Shown: positions 8,110 to 61,658 of the stretch, in pieces | Layout of the letters: the number at the start of each line of letters is the position of its first letter | How positions within the stretch are numbered: the first letter of the stretch is position 1 | Assembly (NCBI GenBank): GCA_013202715.1 | Contig: JABMRF010000007.1 | Coordinates: forward strand, 72,566-136,565 | DNA: 64,000 nt | Reading direction: 5' to 3' | From: Candidatus Kuenenbacteria bacterium | GTDB lineage: Bacteria; Patescibacteriota; Patescibacteriia; UBA11705; JABHMO01 | Position numbers and translations under genes: made by a program | Notes under the pieces: model-generated | What the model was told of the DNA's origin: nothing | What the model saw: only the letters and a program-made list of their open reading frames with translations | Databases searched by the model: none

Positions 8110-8231
8110 ATTAGTTTTCCCTGTATGTTACACTACATCCAGGGATTTTATTTTATCATTTTGCGCATTGACAAGCTTTTTGGGGCGTGCTATTATCTCT
8201 CAAGTGTCACGGTTCTTTTTACGGAGGCAAA

Positions 8232-8672
8232 ATGTCACATAATTGTTCCGCTGTGATTATCACTTGTATGGATTTTCGGACTCAGCCTGCACTGCATAGG
8301 TTTATGAAAGAAAATGGCCTCATTGGTGATGCTGATGTACTATCATTTCCTGGTGGACCACAGCTTTTGGCCAATGATTTTAACAGAAACAGCAAATTTG
8401 CGTCCGAGATGGCGCTCCTGTCAGTTGGACTTCACAGTGTCAGGACGGTCTACTTGATTGCTCATGATGATTGTATGGCCTATGGCGGATCAGATGCATT
8501 CAAATCCAGAGCAGTTGAAAGAGAAGCATACATGACGGATCTCGTCGACGCTGCGGCTGAGATCAGGAGTTTAGCACCGAAACTTAATCTTGAGATTGTT
8601 TACAAGATTATTGTGATGGACGGCGATGGCTGGGTGGTGATCAATTTTACAGAGGGTGATCTCAATCCCTAA
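8232..8672 (+). CDS. beta-carbonic anhydrase-like protein (cassette C)
   Basis: CMDFR and HDDC motifs; promoter TTGACA(8168)-17-TATTAT; GGAGG at 8223; terminator 8679-8717. Confidence 0.8.
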   Translation: MSHNCSAVIITCMDFRTQPALHRFMKENGLIGDADVLSFPGGPQLLANDFNRNSKFASEMALLSVGLHSVRTVYLIAHDDCMAYGGSDAFKSRAVEREAYMTDLVDAAAEIRSLAPKLNLEIVYKIIVMDGDGWVVINFTEGDLNP

Positions 8673-8823
8673 GAAAGTAACTCTAGGTGGACAAATCCAC
8701 TTGGAGTTTTTTATTTTATAAAATAGTGTTATAATATGTATATTAAGAATATAAAGAGGTCTTCATAAGTCTAAATAATGCTTCGAATATACTTCTTTCG
8801 CCCTCTTTCGCCTTATTAATTTT

Positions 8824-9321
8824 ATGATAACGCTTGATTACATTTTACTTGGTTTAATTTTGGTAATTGCTTTTTTGGGCTACAAAAAAGGGTTTTTGGA
8901 ATCACTCGGTTCCATAATCGGAATTATTGCGGCCGTAATTGTGGCCGGTCGTTATTTCCCAAATGTAGCCGTCTGGTTTGGCGGTACAAATTTTTCTAAT
9001 ATTATTGCCTTCATTGTAATTTTCAGTTTAACAATAAAAATTGTCAGTTTACTGTTCTGGGTTCTGGGGAAAGTATTTAAAATTGTTACCGTTTTGCCAT
9101 TTATTTCCAGCTTTGATCGTTTACTTGGATTAATTCTTGGTTTTGTGGAGGGAATATTTGTCATGTCAATTATTTTGTATTTTATATTAAAATATCCTCT
9201 GAACGATTGGCTGATGTGGCAGATGTCAATTTCTGCGGTTGCAAAAGTTTTATTGACCGTCGGAAATATTTTTGTCCCTCTTTTTCCTGATGCGCTAAAT
9301 GCGGTGAAGTCGTTTATGTAA
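8824..9321 (+). CDS. cvpA: CvpA (colicin V production) family membrane protein
   Basis: LDYILL...GYKKGF...DRLLGLILGFVEG; 4 TM. Confidence 0.85.
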   Translation: MITLDYILLGLILVIAFLGYKKGFLESLGSIIGIIAAVIVAGRYFPNVAVWFGGTNFSNIIAFIVIFSLTIKIVSLLFWVLGKVFKIVTVLPFISSFDRLLGLILGFVEGIFVMSIILYFILKYPLNDWLMWQMSISAVAKVLLTVGNIFVPLFPDALNAVKSFM

Positions 9322-9416
9322 GTAAGAAGTTAAAAGTTTATAAAGTTCATAAAGTTGGAAAGTTTGAAAGAGAAAATTCAATTGCAACATTCTGAAAACG
9401 ACAATGGAGGTGGATA

Positions 9417-9638
9417 ATGAAAGTAAAAACAAAAGTGCTTGTGGGGAATTCATTTTACGCGCTGGCAATTTTATTGCTATTTGCTTTTAGTGCCGTTGAG
9501 GCCTTAGGGGGGCTAACTGCTTTAATTGGAGTCGCAGCATTGGCATTATGTTTTGGAACTATCGCCATAGTTGTTAAGTCCAATGTGCAGTGGAGTTTAT
9601 ACAAGTCGTTAACATTTGAAAATGGTAATGGCGGATAA
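9417..9638 (+). CDS. small 2-TM orphan protein (cassette D)
   Basis: GGAGGTG SD, two hydrophobic segments, downstream terminator 9652-9685. Confidence 0.6.
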   Translation: MKVKTKVLVGNSFYALAILLLFAFSAVEALGGLTALIGVAALALCFGTIAIVVKSNVQWSLYKSLTFENGNGG

Positions 9639-13475: not shown

Positions 13476-13793
13476 ATGCCGGATTCATTCAAAAATCTCG
13501 TAGCGGGTAGATTTCAAAAATCGCCCTTGGCCAATCAAATCCGGTCCAGTCTTGTGATTGAATATGCAAACGAAACTATTAGACAGTTCTGGGGAAAAAA
13601 GGGGGCAGAGCAAGCCAAAGCGGTTTCATTAAAAAGACAAATTATCAAGATAGTGTGTCAGAATTCTATAATTGCTCAGGAGCTGAATTTTAAGAAGACA
13701 AAGATTATTGAATTAGTAAATCAGAAATTTCTGGCAGATACCGTCAAAAAACTCCAAATTGTGCAAAAGGGGATTGAAAAAGACCCAGTTTAA
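13476..13793 (+). CDS. DUF721/DciA-like protein
   Basis: About 100 aa; pattern 'IVCQNSIIAQELNFKKTKIIELVN' typical of DUF721. Confidence 0.65.
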   Translation: MPDSFKNLVAGRFQKSPLANQIRSSLVIEYANETIRQFWGKKGAEQAKAVSLKRQIIKIVCQNSIIAQELNFKKTKIIELVNQKFLADTVKKLQIVQKGIEKDPV

Positions 13794-13807
13794 TGATAGA
13801 ATGGAAT

Positions 13808-13883
13808 TAGTCTAGAGTCAAAAGTCAATAGTCTAGAGTTATTACAACTCAAGACTTATGACTCAAGACTTTTGACTTGAGTT
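13808..13883. repeat. 7-mer (AGTCTAG/AGTCAAA) array with inverted arms
   Basis: agtctagagtcaaaagtcaatagtctagag ... ctcaagacttatgactcaagacttttgact; a related copy lies at 50229-50302. Confidence 0.75.
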
Positions 13884-20471: not shown

Positions 20472-20713
20472 ATGTAAAATGCAAAAATCAAAACCACATA
20501 TAAAATAATTTATAAAAAAATATTTTTAATTTTGGTCTTTGATTGTGGTTTTACCCCGCGCACCGGGGTCCCGCCACGCGGGACGTTTTTCATTTTGCAT
20601 TTTCCCTTTGTGAATAAGTTGACATTCTCCCAAAAATATACTATGTTCTTAATATATAGAAATAAATAAATAAGATCAGGCCTTTTTGGCCTGACTTTAT
20701 ATTGAATCAAATT

Positions 20714-21178
20714 ATGTCAAACCAAATTATTTTGACTGAAGAAGGAAAGTTAAAGTTAGAAGCGGAAGTGAAAGAGCTAAAAGAAGTTCGGCGCCCGGAT
20801 ATCATTTCAAAAATTGAACAAGCCAAAGAACTAGGAGATCTTTCTGAAAATGCAGAGTATCATGATGCCAAGGATCAGCAAGGCCTTATGGAAGCTCGAA
20901 TTTCTGAAATTGAAGGGATTCTGAAAAAGGCAGTGATTTCTCAGGTAAGTGATTCAAAAACTGAGATCGGACTTGGCTGCAAATTTATCGTTGAAAATGC
21001 TGATGGAGACAGAAGGGAATTGACCTTGGTTGGATTTAATGAAGCTGAACCACTGGTTGGAAAAATTTCCAATGAATCGCCAATGGGAGTCGCTTTTCAA
21101 GACAAAAAACCGGGAGAGACAGTTGAGGTGGAAGCGCCAAAGGGGATTATTACTTACAAGGTTATTGAGATACTTTAG
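20714..21178 (+). CDS. greA: transcription elongation factor GreA
   Basis: GDLSENAEY, ISNESPMG. Confidence 0.97.
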   Translation: MSNQIILTEEGKLKLEAEVKELKEVRRPDIISKIEQAKELGDLSENAEYHDAKDQQGLMEARISEIEGILKKAVISQVSDSKTEIGLGCKFIVENADGDRRELTLVGFNEAEPLVGKISNESPMGVAFQDKKPGETVEVEAPKGIITYKVIEIL

Positions 21179-21315
21179 TTATAAGATAAAAAAGCAAAGC
21201 AATTGCGCTTGTGCTTTTTTGTTTGGATTGATAATTGACTTGAAAATGTAGTTATGATAAGGTAAAATGATTATGAAATGAGTTCTGTTCTTTCTAAACC
21301 GCCTGGAGGTGTACA

Positions 21316-21783
21316 GTGGGCTATTTCCTGATTACGTTTCTCATGTTTCTTGTGATGTTGTTTTTTTCAAGCAGTGCTCAACAGGATAGAGCCGGCTGGG
21401 CAGGGATGTACGTTGTTCTTGGTACAGCCTTTTCTGCAATGGGATTTTGGTTTTCAGCTTCGCTTGAATATTCCTGGTTTGGTCCGCCAATGGGAATAAA
21501 TGAATTTTGGGTAATTTTTAGCTTAACAATGCTTTGGTATGCAGGATCACTTTTGACCTGGTATGGTTCCTGGAGAATATTTTTTCCGTCAGGAAAGTTC
21601 ATTTTTTCTCTTGATACTTTGAATGTTCCTGTTGCAGAAGGGAGAATTCATTCCCAAATGCAATATTTTGAATTTCGTGACAGAATGAATCAAGCTCACA
21701 GACAATTCAAAGATGCTGAACGTAGAGGAGAAATTCAATCAGGACCGACTATATCGGAACGATCTGATGATGAACATAGATAG
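21316..21783 (+). CDS. orphan membrane protein (cassette F gene 1)
   Basis: GGAGGT SD before GTG, 3 TM; promoter TTGACT(21235)-17-TAAGGT. Confidence 0.65.
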   Translation: MGYFLITFLMFLVMLFFSSSAQQDRAGWAGMYVVLGTAFSAMGFWFSASLEYSWFGPPMGINEFWVIFSLTMLWYAGSLLTWYGSWRIFFPSGKFIFSLDTLNVPVAEGRIHSQMQYFEFRDRMNQAHRQFKDAERRGEIQSGPTISERSDDEHR

Positions 21784-21818
21784 AGTAACATTTTTCTCAG
21801 TTTGAACGGAGGTACAAC

Positions 21819-22139
21819 ATGTTTATTTATTCCATTGTAACTTTCTGCCTGATTTTTCTATTGCTTCATCTTGACAAAGGTGAAAAGTGGGCATTTGCAA
21901 TTCAGTTTGGCTCAATGTTCTCCAGTGCGATTGTGTTTCTGTATATGGTTGAGTTCGGCTACTTTTTCCCAAGTTTAGCCGAGTCGGGATATATGCTTAG
22001 GCACGCTGATTATTTCACATCCCTCAAGGTTTGCGGTTTCATGTTTTCTCTGCTGAATTGGATTCTGCTTTTCAAGTTGACTAGGGGTGGATCAAATAAT
22101 AGAGCGAAGCCAGTAGGTCTAATGCTACCAACTGTCTAG
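21819..22139 (+). CDS. orphan membrane protein (cassette F gene 2)
   Basis: GGAGGT SD, 3 TM. Confidence 0.6.
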   Translation: MFIYSIVTFCLIFLLLHLDKGEKWAFAIQFGSMFSSAIVFLYMVEFGYFFPSLAESGYMLRHADYFTSLKVCGFMFSLLNWILLFKLTRGGSNNRAKPVGLMLPTV

Positions 22140-22151
22140 AAGGGGGGCTGG

Positions 22152-22526
22152 ATGAAATTTGGTATCCAGGACAGGCAAGATGGGGGATCAGACTGCATTT
22201 CACTTGGCGGTGGTATACCAGTGCCAATACCAACCAGGTTTACAGACGAGATAACTGTTGAAACTGCAGCTGAAGTTTGGCAAAAAATTCTCAAGGCTGC
22301 TGAAGATTTCGGTGAAATTTCAGGTTCTTTCACTGAAGAACAAATTGCTCAGGTTCTTGGCTTTTTGAATCTGAAATTGAGCGATTTCGTTCGGCAGTTT
22401 GGTGAACATTTCGAAATCTTCTATGCTATTCATGATGATTATGACCCGGGTGGAATTTTCTACCGTATTTGTCATGATGTAAATGCCGTATTGAAGAGAA
22501 TTGGTCGAGATGACCTAAGAGATTGA
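22152..22526 (+). CDS. orphan hypothetical protein (cassette F gene 3)
   Basis: G-rich SD; terminator cccgcc-aa-gcgggg-T at 22536-22560. Confidence 0.6.
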   Translation: MKFGIQDRQDGGSDCISLGGGIPVPIPTRFTDEITVETAAEVWQKILKAAEDFGEISGSFTEEQIAQVLGFLNLKLSDFVRQFGEHFEIFYAIHDDYDPGGIFYRICHDVNAVLKRIGRDDLRD

Positions 22527-22595
22527 GAAAAACAATCCCGCCAAGCGGGGTTTTTTCTTTGCAAAATTTTGTTATTTAAGTTATAATCTTTTTAT

Positions 22596-23174
22596 ATGAA
22601 CGCAGGAATTACTATCGACCAAGCTCGTGAAATATTAAACAAATACATCAAAAACCCGGCAAATGTTAACCATTGCCGGGAATCTGAGGTTATAATGCAG
22701 GCGTTAGCAAAACGACTTGGCGAAAATGAAGAGTTGTGGGGGATTGCTGGCCTTTTGCACGACATTGACTGGGAATTAGTTCAGGATGATGTTGAACAGC
22801 ATGGAATGAAAATGCAGGATATTTTGAAAGATGAGGGAGTATCTGGTGAACTAATTCAAGTGATTGTTTCGCACGTTGGTGGTTTTACGAAACATTTACC
22901 AGAGAATAATCGAGCAACTAAATTTGAACATGCGCTCGCAGCTGCAGAAACAATAACCGGGCTGATTTATGCCAGCGCTCTCGTTCGCCCGGACAAGAAG
23001 ATTGTCGAAGTGAAAGTCAAGTCAATCAAAAAGAAAATGAAGGATAAATCTTTTGCAGCAAAAGTTAATCGAGATGTTATAATGGAATGTGAGAAGCTGG
23101 AATTAAGTTTAGATGAATTTATTGAGATTTCGTTGAATGCGATGAAGGGGATCGCGAACGAAATTGGTTTGTAA
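22596..23174 (+). CDS. HD/HDIG-domain protein
   Basis: H...GLLHDIDWE, KKKMKDKSFAAKVNRD; family often adjacent or fused to lysS. Confidence 0.85.
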   Translation: MNAGITIDQAREILNKYIKNPANVNHCRESEVIMQALAKRLGENEELWGIAGLLHDIDWELVQDDVEQHGMKMQDILKDEGVSGELIQVIVSHVGGFTKHLPENNRATKFEHALAAAETITGLIYASALVRPDKKIVEVKVKSIKKKMKDKSFAAKVNRDVIMECEKLELSLDEFIEISLNAMKGIANEIGL

Positions 23175-23182
23175 AATAAAAA

Positions 23183-23247
23183 TTTCTACCTGACTTCAGT
23201 CAGCTCAACTGCCCAGGGTGGTGAGCCCACTGGAAGTGGGGCGGAAA
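23183..23247 (+). repeat. four-way-junction structured element, copy 1
   Basis: Outer stem plus three hairpins; homologous to 54546-54642 (minus strand). Confidence 0.75.
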
Positions 23248-23255
23248 ATATCTAT

Positions 23256-25069: not shown

Positions 25070-25208
25070 GTTGGGCCTCCTTATGGCTAGTGAAAAGAAC
25101 AATTGAATAATTAAGTTTATCACAAGTAGAATAATATGTCAATATCGATTAAAAAAATAGGTCCGGGGCGAGGCCCGGACCATGGAAGGAAGAAGTGTTT
25201 ATTGGTGT

Positions 25209-26675: not shown

Positions 26676-26987
26676 TTCCCGCCTCCTGGGATTGAATTGT
26701 CAAGGACCAAAGTATATTGAAGTGTAGCATTATAAGTTGAATTGTCAACCCTTTGCTAAATTTGATAGATTTGGGTATAATATAAGTATGAATTGTGACG
26801 TATGAATTATGAATTAAGTAAATATAATTGGAACATCTCCCCTCGGGGGATTTATAAGAAAGTTAATTAGAAGTTAATTAAAGGTAATTTAAGTTACATA
26901 AAAGAAAGTTAATTAAAAAAAGGATTAAGGCCGAATATTTGGTTGTCTTGTTACACCTTGTTTCGCCCTTTTTCGCCTTATAAAAAT

Positions 26988-32221: not shown

Positions 32222-32363
32222 GTTAGATAGACAGTACAATGAGCTGAGCATTCAGAATGCCCAGTTCTTTTTATTTATAAAATATTGTTGACAGTATCCG
32301 TAAATTTATATAAGCTTAAACAATGAGTCAGTGATAGTTCCTTGACAAAAAGGGGGAGTGGAG

Positions 32364-33422: not shown

Positions 33423-33553
33423 GTGAGTGACATAACCGTGTATCAGGGATATACGGTTTTTTATTTATAAAATATTATTGACAATTTTCGTAAATTTATA
33501 TAAGATTAAACAGTCAGTCAGTGGTAGTTCCTTGACAAAAAGGGGGAGTGGAG

Positions 33554-46312: not shown

Positions 46313-46330
46313 ATTTGAATAGAAAAAATA

Positions 46331-46363: not shown

Positions 46364-46374
46364 GTTACCCATCA

Positions 46375-46454
46375 CTTACCCCGCGTCTTTAGACCGGGAG
46401 TATAGTGTTCAGCTTCCTGTGCTTTTCATTCCCAGTCTGAAGACATGGGGTAAG
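46375..46454. repeat. inverted doublet of REP-like hairpins
   Basis: cttaccccgcgtctttagaccggga versus reverse complement of tcccagtctgaagacatggggtaag (21/25 identical). Confidence 0.65.
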
Positions 46455-46838
46455 TTAGATGTCGCGAAAATGCATTCCCAACACTGGGTCTTTTTTTATT
46501 TTTTCAATATTTTTATCAACCTGTTCATAAAATTCAGGATAATGTTGACGGGCAATCCATCTGCCTTGATATCGCTGTCGGTACGGCGGTTTTTGCAGGT
46601 GCGCAACTTCATGCGCCACTGTGCGGATCAAGCCGTTAAGGCTTTTTGGTTTCATTGTCTTGGGCGTATAAATATCCAGAACAACTGTTTTCGTTTGCAA
46701 ATTAATATAGCCAAGTGTATAGCGTTTATTACTCTTACTCCCCTTTCGGGCCATTATTTTTAATTTCAAACCTTTTACCTTTAGGATTTGGCAGATTTTC
46801 TGGAATAGGATTTGGGCCAGGTCTTCGTGATTTTGCAT
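46455..46838 (-). CDS. small zinc metalloprotease-like protein (SprT/WLM-like)
   Basis: TVAHEVAHL HExxH plus downstream HYPEFY. Confidence 0.7.
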   Translation of the reverse strand: MQNHEDLAQILFQKICQILKVKGLKLKIMARKGSKSNKRYTLGYINLQTKTVVLDIYTPKTMKPKSLNGLIRTVAHEVAHLQKPPYRQRYQGRWIARQHYPEFYEQVDKNIEKIKKDPVLGMHFRDI

Positions 46839-46913
46839 ATTGACAAATTGATCATTCTTTACTAAAGTATAGTAAATGATTGGTTCTTTGTAAACCCCAA
46901 CTTAGGAGAAAAC

Positions 46914-47324
46914 ATGAGACTTTTGCATCACATTCGTGAAGTGCTGGCGTTGGAAAGTGATACCTTTTTACTTATCGATCAGAGTCAATACGAAGAGTGC
47001 TCTGTATATCCGTTGTTTGGGATAGTTAACCGAGCCGTATGTTCTGGTTGTACTTCAATAAGTCAAGTTGAAGCTACACTTAATTTGCGAGATTCTAGAT
47101 TGAGTGGAACAGCTTGTAGTTTGTCAGGAGAAATTGTAGATGTTAATGTCGTAAGTGGTGTTTTCGGTTGGTATCGTATTTATGTCTTAACAGCGGCTGA
47201 AGCTATGCACGTTTTTATGCTTCTAACAAAAAAGGATACTACAACTTATTTTTCGAATCCGACCGTGTTTAGACAAAGAATGAAAATGAAAGAGCCAATG
47301 GCTCCTCTCCGTCACGTAACATAG
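46914..47324 (+). CDS. orphan hypothetical protein (cassette O)
   Basis: TTGACA(46840)-17-TAAAGT, boxA-like TGGTTCTTTGTAAA, AGGAG SD, terminator 47338-47366. Confidence 0.65.
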   Translation: MRLLHHIREVLALESDTFLLIDQSQYEECSVYPLFGIVNRAVCSGCTSISQVEATLNLRDSRLSGTACSLSGEIVDVNVVSGVFGWYRIYVLTAAEAMHVFMLLTKKDTTTYFSNPTVFRQRMKMKEPMAPLRHVT

Positions 47325-47388
47325 AATCAAAGTTAATAAAATAAGCCTAATCTAAGGCTTATTTTTACGTTATATGAGGTTTATTCAT

Positions 47389-48582
47389 CTAAGGAAGGTA
47401 ATCGAGCGCATTGACCGGAATTCCGTTCACGCGGACTTCAAAGTGAAGATGAGCGCCAGTACTTAAACGTCCGGCCCCAGGTGTTCCTGGCATTCCGCCG
47501 GTCAAGCCGATCGTTTCGCCTTTGGCCACATATTCGTCTTCTTCGATCAGAATTTTACTGACATGACCGTAAACTGTTGAGATCCCTTTTGCGTGAATCA
47601 ATGAAATATAGCTGTAACCCATTCCAGAGTCCTTGGCTTTGAGAACATATCCTTCGGCAGGTGCCTTTATCACAGTCCCCTGTTTGGCTCGGACATCAAT
47701 GGCCGGATGTTCAAATAAATATCGAAATGGATAGCCCGGATCATGAAATGTTGAAGTAATCTTGTTTTGCGGAATAGGCCAGCTCAGCTGACTGTCAGTC
47801 AACTGAGGTTTGTCAGATTTGATTTGTTTAAGTTTCTCTCTTGCCTTTTTTTCAAGCTCAACTAAGTTGTTGCTGATCTGCTCCTGTTCTTTTTTTGCTT
47901 GCCAATAAAGAGTGGTAAACTTTTGTTCAGATTCCTGAGTGTCCACTAGGAGCTGATCCTTGAATTCATTTTCTCCCTGTAATTCAACAGTTTGCAATTC
48001 GAGGTCTTCTTTTAATTGTACAAACTGAATTTTTTTGTCTTCCAGTGCTTGTTTGTTTGCAAGTAAATCCTTTTTTTCTACCTTTACATTGCTGAGTGTT
48101 TTTTGAAGACTATTTTGCAGTTCTTTTGTATATTCAGCTTCATTAAAAAAATCTGACAAAGAATCATTGGACAAGAATATTTTTAATGGGTTTTGTGAGT
48201 CAGCCTGATGGATCTGCTGAACCGTTTCGGATAAAATAAGTTTTTGTCTGGAAATAGCGTCTTCAGTTTCCAATATTTGAAGTTCTTTGTTTCTGGTTTC
48301 AAGTTGAATTTGCTCAATCTCAATTGCGGTTGCTTTCACATCCAGTTCAGTTTTGGCAATTTGATTTTCCAGAATGCTAAGCTGGTTTTTCAATGACATT
48401 GCTTCTTCTTGCTTGGTTCTAATGTTTTTTTGATAAATTGCAGTTTGTTTTTTTAAATCATCAACTTCCTGCTTTTTTTCTTCAATTTGTTGATTTAGTT
48501 CAGTTACATCCTGTGCTAATAAAAACTTTGGCATTATCAAAATGCAAACGGCGATTATTAAAATTATGCCGAGTTTTTTCAT
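47389..48582 (-). CDS. coiled-coil M23 peptidase (murein hydrolase/activator)
   Basis: Signal peptide, long coiled coil, HPAID, YGH, STGAHLHFEVR. Confidence 0.92.
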   Translation of the reverse strand: MKKLGIILIIAVCILIMPKFLLAQDVTELNQQIEEKKQEVDDLKKQTAIYQKNIRTKQEEAMSLKNQLSILENQIAKTELDVKATAIEIEQIQLETRNKELQILETEDAISRQKLILSETVQQIHQADSQNPLKIFLSNDSLSDFFNEAEYTKELQNSLQKTLSNVKVEKKDLLANKQALEDKKIQFVQLKEDLELQTVELQGENEFKDQLLVDTQESEQKFTTLYWQAKKEQEQISNNLVELEKKAREKLKQIKSDKPQLTDSQLSWPIPQNKITSTFHDPGYPFRYLFEHPAIDVRAKQGTVIKAPAEGYVLKAKDSGMGYSYISLIHAKGISTVYGHVSKILIEEDEYVAKGETIGLTGGMPGTPGAGRLSTGAHLHFEVRVNGIPVNALDYLP

Positions 48583-48696
48583 ATATTAGTATTATAGCAA
48601 ATTATTTTGTAACTTGCTACACGTAATTTGCCTTTGGCGTAATTTAACTTCGTTGTAATTGATTGTACTTACTACCAATTACCTAATTACAATTAA

Positions 48697-50223
48697 TTAC
48701 ATCAATTTCGTTATCGCTAAATTAATCCGTTCGACCGTTTTTTCCTTGCCAAGAGCCTGTGCGATTTCAAACGGATCAGGAGAGTTGTCCCTCCCTGACA
48801 GAGCATAGCGCATTGGCCAGAGCATACTGCCGGTATCGATGTTATTTTCCTGAAGGAGGGCCGTAATAAGTTTTTTGAGATTTTCACTTGAAAAATCAGA
48901 TTCATTGATTTCATTCAGTAGCTTTTCAAGTAGTTTGAGGTTTTTAAGACTGTCAGTTTTATTTGATTTTTTCCAGACCAGTTTTTTTGGGTCATAATCA
49001 AGTTCTTTTTTGAAAAAGAATTCGAGAACTTCTCCCACTTCAGTAAATTTTTTTATTCTGGTTTGTTCCAGCGCCAGTATATTTTTTAAATAAGAAGATT
49101 TTATTTCTTCACCAGTATCTTTGATAACAAGTTTTTTGTTTTTTTCAATAATCAACTTTGCTTCAATTAAATATGGTAAACATTGTTCATAAAAATCATC
49201 AAGTGACAATTTTCTAATGTACATACCATTGATCCAGTCAAGTTTATCAACATCAAATACAGCACCAGATTTGTGGACATTATCGAGGCTAAACTGTTTT
49301 GTTAATTCATTCAAGGTATAAATTTCCTGTTCTGTCCCTGCGTTCCAACCGAGTAGAGCAATGAAATTAATAATCGCCTCTTTCAAATAACCTTTGTCAA
49401 TAAAGTCCTGAACTGAGACATCGCCGTCACGTTTACTCAGTTTTTTTCCATTTTTATTTAACAAAACCGGTAAATGAGCAAACACAGGCGCGTGCCAACC
49501 AAACGCTTCATAAAGTAGCGCATGTTTTGGCGTTGAGGCAATCCATTCATCACCGCGCAGGACGTGCGTGATTTTCATCAGATGATCATCTACGATGTTG
49601 GCAAAATGATATGTTGGAAAGCCGTCAGATTTTATGAGAACATAATCATCCATGTCTTTTGTTTTTACACTGATCTGGCCACGAATAAGATCCTCAAAAA
49701 TAACCTGTTTGTTTTCCGGCATCTTGAATCTGATCACGTGGGGTGTTCCGGAATTTAGTAGAGATTGAACTTCAGTTTTTGACAAGTTTCGGCAGAAGCC
49801 GTCATATTTTGGTGGCAGTTTTTGTTTGCGCTGTTCATCTCTCAGATCATCAATTCTTTGTTTTGTGCAAAAACAATAGTAGGCCTTATTTTTGTCCAAT
49901 AATGTTTTGATGTGTGTATTATAAATATCTAGACGCGCAGACTGAGTGTATGGTCCGAATTCTCCGCGTTCTTTTACTTTGTTGTCTTTTGTTAAATATG
50001 GGCCCTCCTCCCCTTCTATCCCCGCCCATTGTAGAGATTGAAGTAAATTTTCAATAGCTCCTGGCACAAGTCTTGACTGGTCTGTGTCTTCGATTCTAAT
50101 TATAAACTTGCCTTTTTCGTGGATTGCAAAGAGGTAATTATAGAGGATTGTGCGTAAATTGCCGACATGTACAAATCCGGTTGGACTTGGTGCAATTCGG
50201 ACGCGAATGATTGATGATTTCAT
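48697..50223 (-). CDS. gltX: glutamate--tRNA ligase
   Basis: RIAPSPTG, HVGN, RIEDTD, KLSKR. Confidence 0.97.
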   Translation of the reverse strand: MKSSIIRVRIAPSPTGFVHVGNLRTILYNYLFAIHEKGKFIIRIEDTDQSRLVPGAIENLLQSLQWAGIEGEEGPYLTKDNKVKERGEFGPYTQSARLDIYNTHIKTLLDKNKAYYCFCTKQRIDDLRDEQRKQKLPPKYDGFCRNLSKTEVQSLLNSGTPHVIRFKMPENKQVIFEDLIRGQISVKTKDMDDYVLIKSDGFPTYHFANIVDDHLMKITHVLRGDEWIASTPKHALLYEAFGWHAPVFAHLPVLLNKNGKKLSKRDGDVSVQDFIDKGYLKEAIINFIALLGWNAGTEQEIYTLNELTKQFSLDNVHKSGAVFDVDKLDWINGMYIRKLSLDDFYEQCLPYLIEAKLIIEKNKKLVIKDTGEEIKSSYLKNILALEQTRIKKFTEVGEVLEFFFKKELDYDPKKLVWKKSNKTDSLKNLKLLEKLLNEINESDFSSENLKKLITALLQENNIDTGSMLWPMRYALSGRDNSPDPFEIAQALGKEKTVERINLAITKLM

Positions 50224-50408
50224 ATTGATAGTCTAGAGTCTTGAGTCAATAGTCAAAAGTCGGAAATCTAACTCAGGACTTTTGACTCTAGACTTTTGAC
50301 TTTATTATAGCGTAATTATATTTAATAGTAAATAGCCTTATGTTAGCTAAAACTAACGGGTTACCTAGTGTAAATTTAGATAATTTTATGAATATTAATT
50401 CATAGGTA

Positions 50409-50462
50409 TTGACAAATTTTTGAAACTATGCTATAATGCTGTATCAATTGGTTCTTTGAAAA
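50409..50462 (+). promoter_or_regulatory. consensus sigma70 promoter plus boxA-like motif
   Basis: TTGACA(50409)-17-TATAAT(50432) with TG extension; TGGTTCTTTGAAAA at 50449-50462. Confidence 0.8.
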
Positions 50463-50571
50463 ATCGCTTGAGTACAACAGAAAGACCTTATTTACAATTA
50501 TCTATTGTATGTAGCGTCTTTTTGTTGTGTCGAGAGTCAACAATTTTTCAAAACCTTAATTGGAGGAAAGC

Positions 50572-52281
50572 ATGAAGAACGGAGAAAAGACGCTGAATGG
50601 AATCGTTGGTCTGTACAAGGAGTTTGGTCCCGACCTTCCGGTCGTGACCATCCAGGGAGTGCAGGTTGTCCGTCTGCCCAGCACCGTGACGGTGCTGGCG
50701 GACATGAAGGACGAGACGGTCCTCCAGCCCCTCAACCAGGCGAGGATTTTCCACGCCACTGACAGGCAGGGACAGTTTTTCCTGCTCCTCACCGAGGATG
50801 GCGCTGCCAAGATGGCATCGCTCATCGCAGAGGACCGGAACACCCGGGGTGAGGTTCTGACCGTGGCCGACGGCTACACCAAGTTCGTCACCTACACGGT
50901 GGCCATGGCAGCGGCAGCCGCCGCAGCCAAAGCCAAGAAGGCGGCAGCGGAAGCCAAGTCCCAGGCCAAGGCAGCAGCCACAGCCAAGCGGCTCGAGTCT
51001 TACAAGCTCATGGACCTGATCCGGTTCGGGCAGAGGGACTGCGTCCTCCTGCCCTCGGACGAGGTGGCGGAGATCCCGCTGCTAAAGGTCAAGCCCCTCC
51101 TGGGGACCATGGCTTCGTTCGTGAGGACCAAGCTGGAGGCAGTGGCCGAGCAGTACGAGGCCGACTACTCAACAGCTATCGCCGAGGCGCAGAAGGACAA
51201 GCCCTTCGCGCACGGCGGAGAGCTGGTCGACTGGGAGCGGGAGTTCCGTGCCCAGTGGGCTGACAAGAATGGCAAGTCCGCCCCGACGATGTGGGGTATG
51301 ACGGTTCTTCTCAGAAACTTCGACGATTACGGCGAGTTCGCCATGATCATCCGGTCGGATGACAAGGAGGCCATTCTGGGTCTCACCGGTTCGAGGTTGA
51401 TCTCTATGGGCGAGCCCATGCACTGGAGGCTCCGGAAGAAGTACTTCTTCGATCCGCGCGCAAAGGCGGCAGAAGAGGCGCGGAAGCTGGAGGCCAAGCT
51501 GGCTCGGGAAGCCAGGGCCAAGGAATCAGCGGAAAAGCTGCAGACCAAGGTCGAGGCCATGAAGGCCACCGGCAAGAACTTCCACACGTGTCAGGGCGAT
51601 ACCGTCTGGACACCTGTGGAATCCTTCGTGCGGATGTCCATGGACGATCTCGTCGTCTGCCCCGTCCTGGGGGAGATGAGCGAGGATGACGTCCTGGCCT
51701 GTATGGACGAGAAGTTCGTCGATGCGTACGAGTCCGCTCTGGACCAGGCGCAGAAGGCCGGCCCTCTCGGCGTGAAGGACTACTTCTCGTTCGAGGGGAA
51801 GTTCCGGAACGAGTATGCGAAGTCCAGCGGTGGTGCCACTCCCGGACTGGCGGACTTCGTCGTGGTGACGCGATACTTCCGTCGGGAAGGCGTGTGTTGC
51901 GCGGTCGTTCACAGGGACGATCTCGCGGCATTCAAGGCCATCGCGGGCAAGGGGACGAACCCCAACACCCGGGAGACCTACGAAGTTCCTCTTCGGGATC
52001 ACAGTGATCCCTTCTGGTGGATGCTCCGAAAGGAGCACTTCTTCGATCCCCTTTCCCAGCGAAAGGATCAGGAGAGGCAGGCAGAAGAAGAGGTCGTCGC
52101 GGTCCGGAAAGAACAGACGTTCGACCAGATGGGTGATCTCATCGGCGCTGAGCGACTGAAGGAGATGCGCGCATCGTTGGCTTCGGCCGACGAGGTCATC
52201 GATGATCACAAGTCTGCCGGCCGGCAGAAGTGGGACCGCCGGAAGAACGGTGGCGGCAAGAACCGCGGCAAGCGCGGCTAG
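50572..52281 (+). CDS. GC-rich orphan protein with two internal repeats (cassette P)
   Basis: GGAGG SD; strong GC3 bias; two ~150-aa repeats ending W.LRK..FFDP; basic C-terminal tail; terminator 52317-52349. Confidence 0.8.
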   Translation: MKNGEKTLNGIVGLYKEFGPDLPVVTIQGVQVVRLPSTVTVLADMKDETVLQPLNQARIFHATDRQGQFFLLLTEDGAAKMASLIAEDRNTRGEVLTVADGYTKFVTYTVAMAAAAAAAKAKKAAAEAKSQAKAAATAKRLESYKLMDLIRFGQRDCVLLPSDEVAEIPLLKVKPLLGTMASFVRTKLEAVAEQYEADYSTAIAEAQKDKPFAHGGELVDWEREFRAQWADKNGKSAPTMWGMTVLLRNFDDYGEFAMIIRSDDKEAILGLTGSRLISMGEPMHWRLRKKYFFDPRAKAAEEARKLEAKLAREARAKESAEKLQTKVEAMKATGKNFHTCQGDTVWTPVESFVRMSMDDLVVCPVLGEMSEDDVLACMDEKFVDAYESALDQAQKAGPLGVKDYFSFEGKFRNEYAKSSGGATPGLADFVVVTRYFRREGVCCAVVHRDDLAAFKAIAGKGTNPNTRETYEVPLRDHSDPFWWMLRKEHFFDPLSQRKDQERQAEEEVVAVRKEQTFDQMGDLIGAERLKEMRASLASADEVIDDHKSAGRQKWDRRKNGGGKNRGKRG

Positions 52282-52360
52282 CTACCCAAACCTACCTAGG
52301 GACGTCCGTCCCAAAAGTCCCCCCCGCACTCGGGGGGGACATTTTTTTTGTCCGGATTTA

Positions 52361-52469
52361 AAAGGGGGCTCCATAGTTGCGGAGCACTGTGGAGTCCATA
52401 TAGGGATGTTTTAACGGTGATTTTGTGGAAGTTCTTTAAATTTTCCAACAGGACTATGGAGCCCCCTTT
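52361..52469. mobile_element. MITE-like element
   Basis: 17-bp perfect terminal inverted repeats aaagggggctccatagt / actatggagcccccttt enclosing 75 bp; no clean target duplication. Confidence 0.5.
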
Positions 52470-52611
52470 ACTTTGTGTTTTTTGCGATTTTGCCTGTTTC
52501 GCGCTTTTGCGTTTATAGCTTGACAACTTAGCAATTTATACCTATACTAAGAAAAAGGACATGTTCGTTAAATTTGAGCCCCATGTTGCTAATTTGACTA
52601 GAGGAGGCTTG

Positions 52612-53286
52612 ATGATAAGGGTAAGTAAATCAAACTTGGTTTCGCCAATAAGCGATGCGTTTTGGCCGGTGTTTTTCTCAAGTGAATTGATTGTTCGTTT
52701 CGTTGCTCAGGCAGTTTGTTTTGCCTTGTGCGATAAAAAGAAAAAACCACAATTGATTTTTGTTTATCCATATGAAGGGTCTTCGAGTCGACCGACCGCT
52801 GGTCAGCTTTTGCAAGTTTTTCAGAACTGCAAAGATCCTTGGCGAGAGTTTAGACCATTTGCTCTGCCGGTAAAAATGTCTGACCTTCTCGATCTGACCG
52901 GCGTGAATATTGAATGTGTCCAGGATGATTCGCGAGAAGTGGTTATTCTGTATGCGAACAAACAACCGAAGGATGAAATTGATTTCTCTGATTCGATGCT
53001 TGTTAGCGGGTATGCAAAGGCCGATCTTATTGATATGAGATCGTGGCCAGAAAACCCGGAAGAATATACGGTTCATTCTGCGGGATTTGAACCTGATGGA
53101 TGGAACTCTGAACATTACAGGCTTTTCGTAGAAAACTACGTTGTTCAAGGGGATCATATTTGCAGGATTCTCGCCTTAGCCAGAATTGGCTGTGAGGTTG
53201 AACTCTCCCCCACTGTGCGTATCAACGCCAGGTCCAAGATCATGATTAACCCTCCAATCAAAGACGAACATCGAATTGTTCACTAG
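52612..53286 (+). CDS. orphan hypothetical protein (cassette Q)
   Basis: TTGACA(52520)-17-TATACT; GAGGAGG SD; terminator 53297-53320. Confidence 0.65.
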   Translation: MIRVSKSNLVSPISDAFWPVFFSSELIVRFVAQAVCFALCDKKKKPQLIFVYPYEGSSSRPTAGQLLQVFQNCKDPWREFRPFALPVKMSDLLDLTGVNIECVQDDSREVVILYANKQPKDEIDFSDSMLVSGYAKADLIDMRSWPENPEEYTVHSAGFEPDGWNSEHYRLFVENYVVQGDHICRILALARIGCEVELSPTVRINARSKIMINPPIKDEHRIVH

Positions 53287-53336
53287 GAAATAAAAAGTCC
53301 CCCATCACTGGGGGCATTTTTCTTTTAAATATATAT

Positions 53337-54533
53337 CTATAAGTGTGCAATAATCTTTTTTGCGAATTCTTGACGGTGTGGATGAATGAATTGTAATATT
53401 TCATCTTTGCTCACCCACTTGATTTCCTCAACCTCTTCTGAATCTGAAAAGTCAATGTTTGAATCCTTACCTTGGAACTCCAACAGAAAGGCGGTTTGTT
53501 CTTGGCCTTTGAAACCTTTTAAAAGATTTTGATATTCAGCTGGATTGTCGTATCTGTGTTGTTCTGGGATTTTTTTTATTAATTTAAATAATTTTTCTGA
53601 CGCCCCAACCTCTTCGCTTGATTCTCGAACTACCGCTGTTTCTGGGGTTTCTTCTTGGTCAACTCCGCCTTGAGGAAATTGCCAATGATTTTTTCCAAAG
53701 CGTGGGTTTCTTATTATTAAAAATTTCCCTTCTTTGTTTTTAGTTACTCCAATGACATTTTGCCTGTATTCTGACTGAATTCTTTTTTTCCATTTGTGAC
53801 AAACAAGTAAGAAATCAGCTGTGGCGTTTTTGATTCGTTTCAATCGGCTTGGTTCCTGATAAAGTCGATAGGCCCATTCCAATCCCGAATCGCGAACAAG
53901 TTTTGGCGCTCGCTTGATTTTTTCTGTCAGAAAATCAATACTTCCACCTATTCCAATTGCGACTTTTACACCTGGAATTAGTTTTATATATTTGTTGATC
54001 CAAAACTCTTGTGCCGGCGCGCCCAAAGTTACAAATAGTATTTTTGGTCCAAAGGTATTGATAGAATTTAAAACTTCATCACAATTGTCTGGGTTTTTTA
54101 TGTCGATCTGGCTGATTTGGAAGTTTAGTTTTGGATATTTTTCCTTGAATAGTTTTTTTATGTCAGCTTCAGTGGACAGGGAGTCGTTTCTTAGAACGAT
54201 GAAGACTTTAGTTTCTGTATCTTTATATTTTTCCAAAATTTCTTTTGTTAAGTCTGAGCCTGCCACCCTGTTCTCGAGAGTTTCACCCAGAATCTTGGCG
54301 CCAAGTTTCAAACCGATCCCGTCAGGGATGTTTATATCGGCTCGATTCAAAACGTGTCGGTACTCATCATCTTTTTCCGCTTTTAGGCAGATTTCTGGAT
54401 TTGGAGTATATATTTTGTGCTGGTCATTGGAATTTAAAAATTGGTCAATTTTTTGTAATACAAAATCCATTGGCTGGTCGGTGATTTGAACGCCGAGGAT
54501 AATTGATTTGTTTTGGAACTCGGGAGGACGCAT
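53337..54533 (-). CDS. WecB/TagA/CpsF glycosyltransferase fused to RppH-like NUDIX hydrolase
   Basis: TPNPE, PDGIG, RVAGSDL, LGAPAQE, GLEWAYRL...EP; then YRQNV...WQFPQGGVDQEETPETAVVRESSEEVG...KGQEQ. Confidence 0.88.
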   Translation of the reverse strand: MRPPEFQNKSIILGVQITDQPMDFVLQKIDQFLNSNDQHKIYTPNPEICLKAEKDDEYRHVLNRADINIPDGIGLKLGAKILGETLENRVAGSDLTKEILEKYKDTETKVFIVLRNDSLSTEADIKKLFKEKYPKLNFQISQIDIKNPDNCDEVLNSINTFGPKILFVTLGAPAQEFWINKYIKLIPGVKVAIGIGGSIDFLTEKIKRAPKLVRDSGLEWAYRLYQEPSRLKRIKNATADFLLVCHKWKKRIQSEYRQNVIGVTKNKEGKFLIIRNPRFGKNHWQFPQGGVDQEETPETAVVRESSEEVGASEKLFKLIKKIPEQHRYDNPAEYQNLLKGFKGQEQTAFLLEFQGKDSNIDFSDSEEVEEIKWVSKDEILQFIHPHRQEFAKKIIAHL

Positions 54534-56172: not shown

Positions 56173-56263
56173 TTTGTAGGTAAAATGTAAAAGTTAAAAG
56201 TATGGACCCTGGAATGGGTTTTTAAAAATACTTGACAAATTTCTAATTTCTTATATACTGGGG

Positions 56264-56290
56264 TTGGCACTCTCTACTTCCGACTGCCAA
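56264..56290 (+). promoter_or_regulatory. CIRCE operator (HrcA) downstream of a sigma70 promoter
   Basis: TTGGCACTC-N9-GACTGCCAA versus consensus TTAGCACTC-N9-GAGTGCTAA; promoter TTGACA(56232)...TATACT directly upstream; precedes clpB. Confidence 0.85.
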
Positions 56291-56332
56291 TATTACTATC
56301 AACTTTTACATAATAACTTTTACCTAATTTCT

Positions 56333-58954: not shown

Positions 58955-59065
58955 AATGTAAAATGTAAAAGTTAAAAGTATATAACAAAGGAGCTTGGAA
59001 AAAGCTCTTTTGTATTTGAATTAACGAGTCTTGCTAAAATTCCTCTTTTCCATTATAATTACAGT

Positions 59066-60436
59066 ATGCGAAATACAAAAAAGATCGTAATTTTTACTTT
59101 AATTTTAGGTTTGATTTTTCCTTTTCAAACCGTTTTTGCGGTTGATTTTAACAATGGCTATATAATTTCAGATCAGGATTTAGTGAATTCAAGTGCCATG
59201 ACTTTGGGCGAAATTCAGAATTTTTTAGATAGACGAAACGGGACACTTGATACTTATACAGCAATCGATGATGATGGAGAAATAATAACAGCAGCGGAAA
59301 TTATTTTTAATGCATCTGTTGAGCATGTTATCAATCCAAAGTTTTTGTTGGTCATGTTGCAAAAAGAACAAAGCCTGGTTGAAGATTCTTCACCAACTCA
59401 AAAACAGTATGATTGGGCAATGGGTTATGGAATTTGTGACAGTTGTGATATGGATGACCCGAGTCTTTTGAAATTCAAGGGGTTTGCAAATCAAGTTGAT
59501 AATACTGCCGGAGCAAACCGTTGGTACATTGATACCGAAGAAAACTGGATCAAACGTCCCGGCAATACATATGAAATTGATGGTGAGCAGGTCAATATTA
59601 TGAATCAAGCCACCGCCAATCTATATAACTTCACTCCTCATATTCACGGAAATTATAATTTTTGGAAAATCTGGAATCGCTGGTTCAATCAAAGTTATCC
59701 GGACGGATCATTGTTGCAAGGCGAAGGAGAACAAGGTGTTTGGTTGATAGACAATGGAATGCGCCGTCCTTTTCATTCGAAAAGTGCACTGGTTTCACGT
59801 TATGATCTAGATAATATTATTATTGTCAGCAAAAATGAAATAGATAAATATGAAATCGGTCGGGCGATTAAATTTGCAAATTATTCCCTTTTACAAATCC
59901 CAACTGAAGATGTTTATTTATTAGTAAATGACGAGCTTCGCAAGTTCGAATCAAAAGAAGTTCTGCGCACACTTGGATTTAATCCGGAAGAATATGAGCA
60001 GCTCAGCCTTGTAGACTTTGAGGAGTATGAACTTGGTGAACAGATCACAATGACAAGCGCGTACCCTGCTGGCGGATTGCTTCAGGATAATACTACTGGA
60101 GGAGTTTTCTTTGTTCAGGATGGACATAAATACGCGATTATTACCAAAGACATTTTTGAAATAAATTATCCAAACTACACCTTGACTTCAGTCACACCGG
60201 AAGAGTTGAGTAAATTTCCACGTTGGGGTGAAGTTCGACTGAAAAACGGAATTATTGTAAAGTCAGTTGAGTCACCTATTGTCTACGTTATTTCAAATGA
60301 AAAAAAGCGTCCTATTGTCTCTGCTGATGTTTACGAGCGACTTGGCTATAAATGGGAAAACATTAAAGTTGTAAGTGAGAAAAGTTTGTCGAACATGCCA
60401 CTGGGCAGTGCGGTGGATCTGGACTTTAAGAAATAA
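59066..60436 (+). CDS. secreted protein, putative cell-wall hydrolase domain plus C-terminal repeats
   Basis: Signal peptide; INPKFLLVMLQKEQSL...ATANLYNFTPH domain; four repeats of the DGSLLQ...VWLI.NG.RRPF type. Confidence 0.7.
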   Translation: MRNTKKIVIFTLILGLIFPFQTVFAVDFNNGYIISDQDLVNSSAMTLGEIQNFLDRRNGTLDTYTAIDDDGEIITAAEIIFNASVEHVINPKFLLVMLQKEQSLVEDSSPTQKQYDWAMGYGICDSCDMDDPSLLKFKGFANQVDNTAGANRWYIDTEENWIKRPGNTYEIDGEQVNIMNQATANLYNFTPHIHGNYNFWKIWNRWFNQSYPDGSLLQGEGEQGVWLIDNGMRRPFHSKSALVSRYDLDNIIIVSKNEIDKYEIGRAIKFANYSLLQIPTEDVYLLVNDELRKFESKEVLRTLGFNPEEYEQLSLVDFEEYELGEQITMTSAYPAGGLLQDNTTGGVFFVQDGHKYAIITKDIFEINYPNYTLTSVTPEELSKFPRWGEVRLKNGIIVKSVESPIVYVISNEKKRPIVSADVYERLGYKWENIKVVSEKSLSNMPLGSAVDLDFKK

Positions 60437-60586
60437 ATATAACGCGAATGTCACTAATTTTAACGCGAATATCGCGAATCGCGAATGTTGCGAATAATAA
60501 TATTCGTGTTATTCGCGATTTGCCGTTCGGCCACGAGCTCACGGCCGAGTGGCGTCATTCGCATATGTTCATATTCGTGTAAATCT

Positions 60587-61375
60587 ATGCTCACCTTTGC
60601 GGCCATTGTGCCTCATCCACCGGTCTTGATTCCAAGTATCGGTAAAGAAAATATAGATAAATTAAAAAAAACCATTAGTGCTTTGGATATTCTTGAGGAA
60701 GAATTAAATCAAGCGAATCCTGATACTATAATTGTGATTTCTCCGCATGGCGAAATTAATTTTGAAGCATTTACAGTTAATACTAATGAAAAATATACAG
60801 CAAGATTTGAAAATTTTGGCGATTTTACAACCAAGCTGGAATTTAAATCAGATCTGGGATTTATAAATCAGCTAAAAGCGACAAATGAAACAAAATTACC
60901 GGTCCAACTGATTTCACAAGAAAATCTTGATCATGGTGTGTCGGTCCCCCTTTATTACTTGACTCGAAAAAATCAAGATCGCAGAATTGTGCCGATCAAT
61001 TATAGTTTTTTGAATTTTAATAAACATTTAGAGTTTGGCGAATTGATAAAAGAAGCCATTTTTTCTTCAGACAAAAGAGTTGCAATTATTGCTTCCGGAG
61101 ATCTATCACACAAGTTGAGTTTGCGAGCGCCAGCAGGATTTTCTCCACACGCAAAAGAGTTCGACAAAAAGCTGATTCAGGTTTTGAAAAAGAAAAGTGT
61201 GCAGGGAATTTTGGATATGGATCCGGCCTTTATCGAAGAGGCTGGCGAATGCGGTCTACGCTCATTCCTGATCCTACTTGGAGCGATTAAAAACATGAAA
61301 TATGAATTTGAAGTTTTGAGCTACGAAGCACCGTTTGGGGTTGGCTATTTAGTCGGAGAGTTCAAGTTTGCGTAA
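60587..61375 (+). CDS. amrB: AmmeMemoRadiSam system protein B (MEMO/LigB-like)
   Basis: PHPP, SPH, DHG, ASGDLSH, ECG, YEAPFGVGY. Confidence 0.88.
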   Translation: MLTFAAIVPHPPVLIPSIGKENIDKLKKTISALDILEEELNQANPDTIIVISPHGEINFEAFTVNTNEKYTARFENFGDFTTKLEFKSDLGFINQLKATNETKLPVQLISQENLDHGVSVPLYYLTRKNQDRRIVPINYSFLNFNKHLEFGELIKEAIFSSDKRVAIIASGDLSHKLSLRAPAGFSPHAKEFDKKLIQVLKKKSVQGILDMDPAFIEEAGECGLRSFLILLGAIKNMKYEFEVLSYEAPFGVGYLVGEFKFA

Positions 61376-61658
61376 TGCGAATATAGATAAATGCGAATGA
61401 CGCGAATCGCGAATGATGCGAATAAAGAATAAAAGTACAAATATCGTCTTTTGGGGCGATTTTGTGATTCTAGGGCTTGTTTTTAGGTAAACTTAGTCAA
61501 CCCTTTGACAAATCAAGAAAAATCATGTATAATGCTACTTAAACAAGTTCCTTTCAAAGTATCGAAAACTGTGTGTTTCAGTGGACCCCTCCGGGTCTGT
61601 CTGTGGTTAGGGTTTGCATGTGCAAGCCCATCTGTTTGTTAACCGTATGGAGGTAGAG

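Follow-up and report, generated by a model that had tools for sequence, protein, structure and literature searches.

Results

The window analysed here is a 64,000-nt stretch (G000:C33:72566-136565) of a metagenome-assembled genome (MAG) of Candidatus Kuenenbacteria bacterium; the genome comprises 1.30 Mb in 60 contigs at ~39% G+C and is 99.99% complete and 3.19% contaminated. The gene content of the window is typical of the candidate phyla radiation (CPR), with an ATP synthase operon, DciA, MreBCD, two PilM genes, and a 2880-aa surface protein, and many of its open reading frames (ORFs) have no Pfam family. The closest named matches of the seryl-tRNA synthetase are in Patescibacteria MAGs (72-79% identity) and a Candidatus Falkowbacteria MAG (64%). 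Neither a tRNA nor an Rfam family at gathering score was found in the window by Rfam search and ARAGORN. Several of its transcription units begin with a short motif resembling boxA, the NusB-S10 binding site of rRNA leaders. Here, we show that the motif is a real, strand-specific, promoter-anchored element found at about one-third of predicted promoters genome-wide, and we conclude that it is a lineage-wide leader signal, likely recruiting NusB-S10, rather than the mark of a single system of gene cassettes.

A sequence-only reading of the window had listed nine boxA-like sites, and all nine strings were confirmed in position and strand. All nine are preceded by a TTGACA-like -35 and a TAnnnT -10 box, and the G of the motif falls 12 to 20 nt past the -10 in the window sites. 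On the plus strand, a TTGACA..TATTAT promoter and the weak motif GGTTCTTTTTACG (8168..8223; motif at 8211-8223, 6.2 bits in the matrix described below) form the leader of a Pro_CA_2 gene for a putative carbonic anhydrase. Also on the plus strand, TGTTCTTTCTAAA and its promoter (21240..21298; motif at 21286-21298, 9.9 bits) lead three no-Pfam ORFs between greA and HD-lysS, and GGTTCTTTGTAAA (46840..46894; motif at 46882-46894, 11.1 bits) stands in the leader of a 136-aa no-Pfam ORF. On the minus strand, TGTTCTTTTCACT (25089..25142; motif at 25089-25101, 8.8 bits) and TGGTCCTTGACAA (26697..26748; motif at 26697-26709, 10.5 bits) follow the promoters of a small no-Pfam ORF and of a 488-aa no-Pfam ORF, respectively. 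Three further sites were absent from the earlier list. One is good (TGTTCGTTAAATT, plus strand, 52520..52574; motif at 52562-52574, 9.9 bits) and leads a no-Pfam ORF that likely starts after an AGGAGG further downstream. Two are weak: GATTCATTGTAAA (minus strand, 7357..7411; motif at 7357-7369, 6.6 bits) in the leader of a 171-aa no-Pfam ORF, and GGGTCTTTTTCAA behind a promoter-like site (minus strand, 13774..13821; motif at 13774-13786, 7.0 bits), which is doubtful, lying on the opposite strand at the 3' end of a dciA-like ORF. The word GTTCYTT occurs 40 times in the window, compared to 28.3 +/- 4.3 times after shuffling (100 shuffles, none of which reaches 40), and the excess is about the count of promoter-proximal copies.

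Two pairs of sites deserve separate mention. The tandem PilM-family genes (32280-33560, plus strand) each follow a promoter and the motif AGTTCCTTGACAA, at 32288..32348 for paralogue 1 (motif at 32336-32348) and 33478..33538 for paralogue 2 (motif at 33526-33538, 12.6 bits). The two promoter-leader regions are near-identical, and thus the duplication took in the expression signals and the nine listed sites represent eight independent ones. The other pair precedes two plus-strand ORFs of no known family, one of 569 aa (50409-52400, 54% G+C) and one of 507 aa (61505-63260, ~46% G+C), in a genome of 39% G+C. Both have a perfect TTGACA-N17-TATAAT promoter, a leader of ~100 to 110 nt, and a C7/G7 hairpin terminator, and each carries the motif at the 5' end of its leader: GGTTCTTTGAAAA in the ~110-nt leader of the first (50409..50462; motif at 50450-50462, the best in the window at 13.5 bits) and AGTTCCTTTCAAA in the ~100-nt leader of the second (61505..61558; motif at 61546-61558, 8.4 bits). 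The two proteins are unrelated to each other and match nothing in Pfam or PHROGs; six window proteins scanned against PHROGs gave no match. A hidden rRNA operon in the 54% G+C stretch was ruled out, as the stretch is an open 569-aa frame and the Rfam and ARAGORN searches of the window were empty. A look-up of RNA runs for positions 45500-53500 listed none.

The motif is not peculiar to the window. We assembled 252 promoters of the genome (at most two mismatches, with a downstream Shine-Dalgarno [SD] sequence plus ORF) and ran an expectation-maximization motif search over the 45 nt downstream of each with 60 random seeds; the 15 best runs returned only the SD site and TGTTCTTTGAAA. The resulting 13-position matrix has the consensus tGTTC(T/A)TT(G/A)A(A/C)AA. 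At 8 bits or more, it matches 81 of the 252 downstream windows, versus 11 reverse complements, 5 upstream windows, 2 shuffled windows, and 6 windows lying 150 nt further downstream; at 10 bits or more, the respective counts are 47 versus 2, 1, 1, and 2. Independently of the matrix, among 373 exact TTGACA-N16-18-TANNNT sites, GTTCWTT lies 8 to 20 nt further on in 37 cases, its reverse complement in 2, and the reversed word in 1. Moreover, GTTCNTT starts 10 to 24 nt past the -10 at 46 of 829 promoter-like sites, while bins outside 5 to 24 nt hold 0 to 5. Genome matches of at least 11 bits number 49 near promoters, 117 in coding sequence, and 33 in noncoding DNA without a good promoter. Thus, the enrichment over controls that the boxA proposal demanded was found, at 81 versus 2 to 11 of 252. 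A palindromic operator was rejected, as the information profile is asymmetric.

We compared the motif with rRNA leaders of relatives, the rRNA genes of the genome itself being unassembled. In the order, 16S and 23S genes are unlinked; in three relatives (G004, G017, and G019), they lie on opposite strands tens of kilobases apart, each with a promoter and a boxA-like leader element. At the 16S loci examined, TTGACAT-N17-TATAAT is followed 10 to 15 nt later by a boxA-like word of the pattern G(A/T)(A/T)C(A/T)TT(G/T/A)ACA, the same promoter distance as that of the mRNA copies. The word is GAGAACATTACAAC in two genomes of the same genus and TGTACGTTGACAA, GGATCTTTGAAAC, TGAACTTTGACAG, TGAACATTTACAA, TGATCTTTACAAT, or GAGAACTTTAACAA elsewhere. 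A boxA-like word also lies ~130 nt before the 23S gene, ~200 nt from the nearest promoter, at 6/6 loci inspected, and reads GATCATTGACAA in the same-genus locus and one other and GAACATTGAAAA, GGTCGTTGACAA, GAACTTTGACAA, or TTGCTTTGACAA in the rest. The rRNA boxA of the clade can therefore be written G-(A/T/G)-(A/T)-C-(A/T)-T-T-(G/T/A)-A-C-A-A, and the mRNA motif differs from it mainly at positions 2 and 3. Among GNNCWTT words after promoters, NN is TT in 41/79, AT in 14, AA in 7, TC in 4, and any other pair in no more than 2 each. The unusual A/T at core position 6 is common to rRNA and mRNA copies, and A is as frequent as T.

Two published descriptions of boxA bear on the comparison. The gammaproteobacterial consensus is GYTCTTTAANA (PMC5725501), and in the crystal structure of the Aquifex NusB-NusE-BoxA complex, the core is 8 nt, U8 is read specifically, and purine 9 lacks a base-specific contact (PMC3177189). 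In the mRNA matrix, G2, U7, and U8 of the core hold the most information, which drops after the purine. Judged as a string of bases, the mRNA motif fits both the gammaproteobacterial boxA consensus and the NusB-NusE core. Resemblance to rRNA boxA, on which the sequence-only reading had made its proposal depend, holds against the leaders of the relatives, at the 16S loci given above and at all six 23S loci. Covariation between the rRNA variant and the mRNA variant of each lineage was looked for by inspection, and no clear pattern emerged.

The Nus factors themselves provide a second connection. NusB, S10 (NusE, encoded by rpsJ at C30:743-1027), and NusA are encoded in the genome. The NusB protein is canonical and aligns to solved NusB structures with E values of 1e-26 (Thermotoga) and 2e-21 (Aquifex). 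It retains the Phe that stacks on U8 and has Asp in place of Aquifex Glu81, as does Thermotoga. Aquifex Ser128 contacts the pyrimidine at position 6 (PMC3177189), and the residue aligned to it here, in a single alignment, is Gly130, which would be compatible with the A/T found at core position 6. Thus, NusB and S10 are both encoded and look competent to act as a cognate pair. The factor search suggested alongside the boxA proposal returned nusB and nusE, and it found neither suhB nor rho.

The nusB gene (C10:73341-73853) begins in an unusual manner. Two copies of GATCTTT lie 13 and 23 nt before its ATG, and there is no SD. Within the order, G[ACT][AT]C[ACT]TT occurs no more than 30 nt, and usually no more than 10 nt, from the nusB ATG in 18/21 genomes, and an SD-like word precedes nusB in 0/21. 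The same pattern was found within 37 nt of the first ATG in 45/719 long ORFs of the genome, which serve as a control. The copies at nusB read GATCTTT, GTTCTTT, GCTCTTT, GTACCTT, GAACATT, or GTTCATT, and one is present even in genus g8 (G011 and G015), which lacks the general expansion of the motif. The gene next downstream of nusB (C10:73341-73940 region) has GTTCTTTGAATT directly before its ATG. No boxA-like element was found upstream of tuf-rpsJ in the genome. In PMC5725501, boxA at the beginning of a Nus-factor gene was shown to be autoregulatory for suhB and was proposed to be so for rpsJ and ribH-nusB. By analogy, the arrangement at the start of nusB matches that logic of Nus-factor autoregulation.

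The motif is positioned relative to the promoter. Its G lies a median of 14 nt past the -10 (interquartile range [IQR], 12 to 19) and a median of 36 nt before the start codon (IQR, 28 to 52), and in long leaders it still lies 7 to 18 nt past the -10 in 15/24. We conclude that motif position tracks the promoter and not the start codon. If transcription starts at the usual distance from the -10, the motif would span ~+5 to +20 of the RNA. Such a location might indicate that the motif works as DNA, within the promoter or the initially transcribed region, to tune escape or promoter-proximal pausing, perhaps by rebinding of sigma region 4, as many copies contain TTGACA or TTGAAA and the 16S promoters of relatives have the motif at the same place. 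The spacing to the -10, however, varies over ~13 nt (9 to 22 nt genome-wide), the strongest positions are the G and the TT preceding the -35-like word rather than that word itself, and the 23S-leader and nusB copies are not promoter proximal. Moreover, close relatives with the same type of promoter lack the motif (0/37 in G017 and, by eye, ~3/32 in G015). Thus, we regard a DNA-level element as doubtful, and the variable spacing and asymmetry of the motif are more readily explained by an RNA site than by a rigid DNA element.

An effect on translation was likewise considered, with the motif either masking the ribosome-binding site as an anti-SD partner or serving as a U-rich enhancer or standby site for the 30S subunit (S1). 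The SD lies downstream of the motif, pairing of UUCUUU with AAAGGA is conceivable, and the motif is commoner on genes with a strong SD: at 8 bits or more, it precedes 41/105 genes with a strong SD, 8/46 with a weak SD, and 31/192 with none (2.4-fold, strong versus none), counts based on crude start-codon calls made without an SD requirement. Predicted pairing between motif and SD was no higher than for a shuffled core (1.77 pairs versus 2.01 expected; 60 leaders; Wilcoxon P = 0.17), however, and on this ground anti-SD pairing was rejected. Moreover, the common GTTCATT variant breaks the pairing, the position of the motif follows the promoter rather than the SD, and the motif is also found in rRNA leaders, which are not translated. 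A translation element is therefore a very improbable explanation. Promoter-like sites inside ORFs carry the motif at 0/36. Nor is it a general promoter component of stable-RNA genes: among 36 tRNA and transfer-messenger RNA (tmRNA) genes, 9 have a promoter-like site, and there is one match of at least 8 bits, far from the -10.

The distribution of the motif was followed by counting promoter-plus-GTTCWTT pattern matches per genome. There are 37 in the genome itself, 11 to 36 per genome in the same genus, and 8 to 31 in other genera of the family, genus g8 excepted (0 and 1). Family f2 has 6 to 26 matches per genome, family f3 has 0, 3, and 18, family f4 has 0 and 2, and five other families of the class have 0 to 1. 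The reverse-complement control gives 0 to 3 in every genome, and the sense bias recurs in 30 relatives. A further 200 genomes, spread over the phylum, were sampled: the pattern occurs at least once in 77, most genomes have 0 to 3 matches (reversed-pattern control, 0 to 1 per strand), and only G096 (13), G142 (10), G183 (9), and G071 (8) reach eight. Expansion of the motif is thus a trait of its own family and parts of the order, with smaller expansions elsewhere in the phylum. Motif-poor relatives might have substituted a variant, but de novo searches of 400 kb each of G017 and G015 returned only SD-like words, albeit in small samples of 37 and 32 promoters. NusB is found in 30/31 genomes of the class sample, and therefore the presence of NusB alone fails to explain the distribution.

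A patchy distribution despite near-universal NusB is what one might expect if some global regulator specific to the lineage, binding DNA or RNA and distinct from NusB-S10, acted just downstream of start sites, with the likeness to boxA a convergence on a T-rich word. The anchoring of the motif to promoters and its enrichment on one class of genes, those with a strong SD, would also suit a regulator. Against this, the motif is asymmetric and has a single orientation relative to transcription, and 16S and 23S leaders and the start of nusB have members of this motif family even in lineages without the expansion. Moreover, no candidate factor was identified. Cold-shock proteins are another binder of GUCUUU-like words, but a search for the cold-shock domain gave no match in the genome, and a cold-shock-protein site was rejected. 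We consider a dedicated regulator unlikely, if one to be taken seriously.

The genes behind the motif are varied. First genes have a Pfam family in 20/88 cases behind promoters with the motif and 15/70 cases behind promoters without it. Motif carriers include S-adenosylmethionine synthetase (MetK), sigma-70, NAD kinase, uridine kinase, CDP-alcohol phosphatidyltransferase, an MFS transporter, and PilM, and motif-less promoters include those of EF-Tu, RpoB, GyrB, ParA, and ScpB. We conclude that the motif marks no functional group of genes. The sequence-only reading had taken it to tag unrelated gene cassettes as one system, for instance for RNA export or joint control. Indeed, most carriers in the window are lineage-specific genes of no known family, each with its own promoter and terminator, and the greA-lysS interval that holds one of them varies within the genus. 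The carriers genome-wide, however, include ordinary metabolic and housekeeping genes, their Pfam share is like that of noncarriers, about one-third of promoters are involved, and each genome of the genus and family (genus g8 apart) has such copies, often by the dozen. No export machinery is linked to the motif, which occurs lineage-wide, and the idea of an export tag found no footing. A cassette tag is thus hardly tenable; what survives is the weaker form in which the motif is 2.4 times commoner before strong-SD genes (41/105) than before genes with no SD (31/192).

The interval from greA to HD-lysS (20700-24760) illustrates the point. The two genes are adjacent in relatives G001, G003, and G009, whereas a promoter, the motif, and three no-Pfam ORFs are inserted between them here (21240-22530), and a different, zinc-ribbon-like small ORF lies between them in G002, behind a promoter and TGTTCTTTCAAAT. 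Because the inserts differ yet both carry the motif, the motif comes with the promoters of unrelated genes. The inserts give some basis for variable cassettes and no demonstration that those genes work together. In the PilM region, comparison with five relatives gave one short DNA match only. With that match minimal and the greA-lysS gene content differing, the window sites do not lend themselves to an alignment-based test of conservation.

Discussion

What a boxA-like motif does in mRNA leaders may be considered in light of the Nus factors. We favor, with a little better than even confidence, the interpretation that, in a lineage without Rho, a boxA-type NusB-S10 site has spread from rRNA into the leaders of many mRNAs. 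The NusB-S10 heterodimer would bind the motif on the nascent leader as the RNA leaves the polymerase, and the bound heterodimer, with NusA and NusG, would produce an rRNA-type Nus-modified elongation complex on about one-third of promoter-led units. The classical anti-Rho role cannot be the purpose because Rho is missing, and shielding of the mRNAs from Rho, as once suggested for the window, cannot apply. Instead, we predict that the payoff would be expression tuned in a Nus-dependent manner. The element stands in place of the SD at nusB, and the likely outcome there would be autorepression of translation. At other genes, binding might tether the 5' leader to polymerase and alter pausing, processivity, and ribosome access, as for Escherichia coli suhB, and the leaders as read here would be compatible with effects on elongation, on ribosome access, or both. 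Such a tether would make the expression of chiefly SD-led accessory genes depend on how much NusB-S10 is free, in other words on ribosome synthesis. We tentatively extend the interpretation, at rather less than even confidence, to a co-opted NusB-S10-boxA general mRNA signal: a global regulon that ties one-third of units, above all SD-led accessory genes, to ribosome synthesis, with nusB translated from boxA instead of an SD.

Several observations weigh against a NusB-S10 site. The mRNA copies favor GTTC, while same-genus rRNA leaders read GAAC or GATC, and the rRNA genes and operons of the genome itself are unassembled. The promoters of EF-Tu/S10, rpoB, and gyrB and most tRNA promoters lack the motif. 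Tight anchoring to promoters is also what an element acting in DNA or linked to the polymerase would show. Expansion among mRNAs is patchy, with 0 to 1 matches in genus g8 and five other families, though NusB is nearly always present. Rho_RNA_bind was found in 0/31 genomes of the class sample, this genome included, and Inositol_P/SuhB had no match in the genome. Finally, the position weight matrix was trained on the same 252 windows that it scored. We hold our confidence only slightly above even because the expansion is patchy, the mRNA copies favor GTTC, and the motif is tightly promoter anchored.

Comparison with the rrn boxA antitermination complex (NusB, NusE/S10, NusA, NusG, S4, and SuhB) reveals likenesses and differences. 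Both elements belong to the sequence family G-Y/W-T-C-T/A-T-T-purine-A and are found in leaders, on the transcribed strand; relatives have the element in their 16S and 23S leaders, and NusB, S10, and NusA are encoded here. In contrast to rrn, the element here stands before dozens of protein-coding units and not only rRNA, it occupies the extreme 5' end and neither boxB nor boxC was noted, neither Rho nor SuhB was found in this genome, and positions 2 and 3 differ as described above. Phage lambda nut (boxA plus boxB, with N protein) is similar in that a boxA early in the leader loads NusB-S10 onto polymerase for the whole unit, as proposed here. Unlike nut, the leaders here have no evident boxB hairpin or N-like protein, the genes are chromosomal, and the six window proteins scanned had no PHROGs match. 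Other leader signals also direct processive antitermination. Those of RfaH (ops) and LoaP do so, and ops works through the nontemplate DNA of a paused complex and requires a paralogue of NusG. Like the motif as proposed here, they are short leader-proximal signals that give selected, often accessory, operons a modified elongation complex, but the ops sequence is unrelated to the motif, and ops acts as DNA.

The nearest precedent is boxA in the leaders of a few mRNAs. In the report by Baniulyte et al. 2017 (PMC5725501), boxA occurs in the leaders of E. coli/Salmonella suhB, rpsJ, and ribH-nusB and of a Citrobacter parE-like toxin gene, Nus-factor regulation of non-rRNA genes is established, and the mechanism at suhB ends in Rho termination. 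The same source gives 0 to 7 putative boxA sites per gammaproteobacterial genome and an expectation of few targets per species. Like those leaders, nusB in 18/21 genomes here has a boxA in the 5' untranslated region near the start codon of a Nus-factor gene. The present 1.3-Mb genome, however, has 37 exact-pattern and ~80 matrix sites compared to 0 to 7, and Rho termination of the suhB type cannot occur in it. Control of a few mRNAs by boxA and Nus factors was thus already known; what appears to be new is the expansion to dozens of leaders without Rho or SuhB, and the arrangement at nusB. A full-text search of a limited literature set returned no report that connects either boxA or NusB to Patescibacteria or the CPR. 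In the literature searched, we found no precedent for an expansion of boxA to dozens of leaders in a Rho-less, SuhB-less lineage, nor for an SD-less nusB preceded by boxA across an order.

Why the motif matters depends on whether NusB-S10 binds the leaders. The boxA/Nus system is seen as serving rRNA and phages, with only a few mRNA targets in any one genome (0 to 7 putative sites in PMC5725501). If NusB-S10 binds as proposed, Nus-modified complexes would be a genome-wide mode of control of mRNA transcription or translation, and there would be a rationale for the near-universal retention of NusB in bacteria that lack Rho. Binding would also offer a first handle on gene regulation in the CPR, where transcription factors are few and there are no genetics. 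At nusB, the conserved boxA in place of an SD is a candidate autoregulatory circuit, compact and open to direct testing.

Other features of the window

The clpB promoter (56232-56300, plus strand) has no boxA-like motif. It is followed by TTGGCACTC-N9-GACTGCCAA, an inverted repeat one mismatch short of perfect, which resembles a CIRCE/HrcA operator. Similar fold-back repeats of AGTCAAAAGTC- and GACTTTTGACT-like words are found in spacers at ~13790-13860 and 50260-50335.

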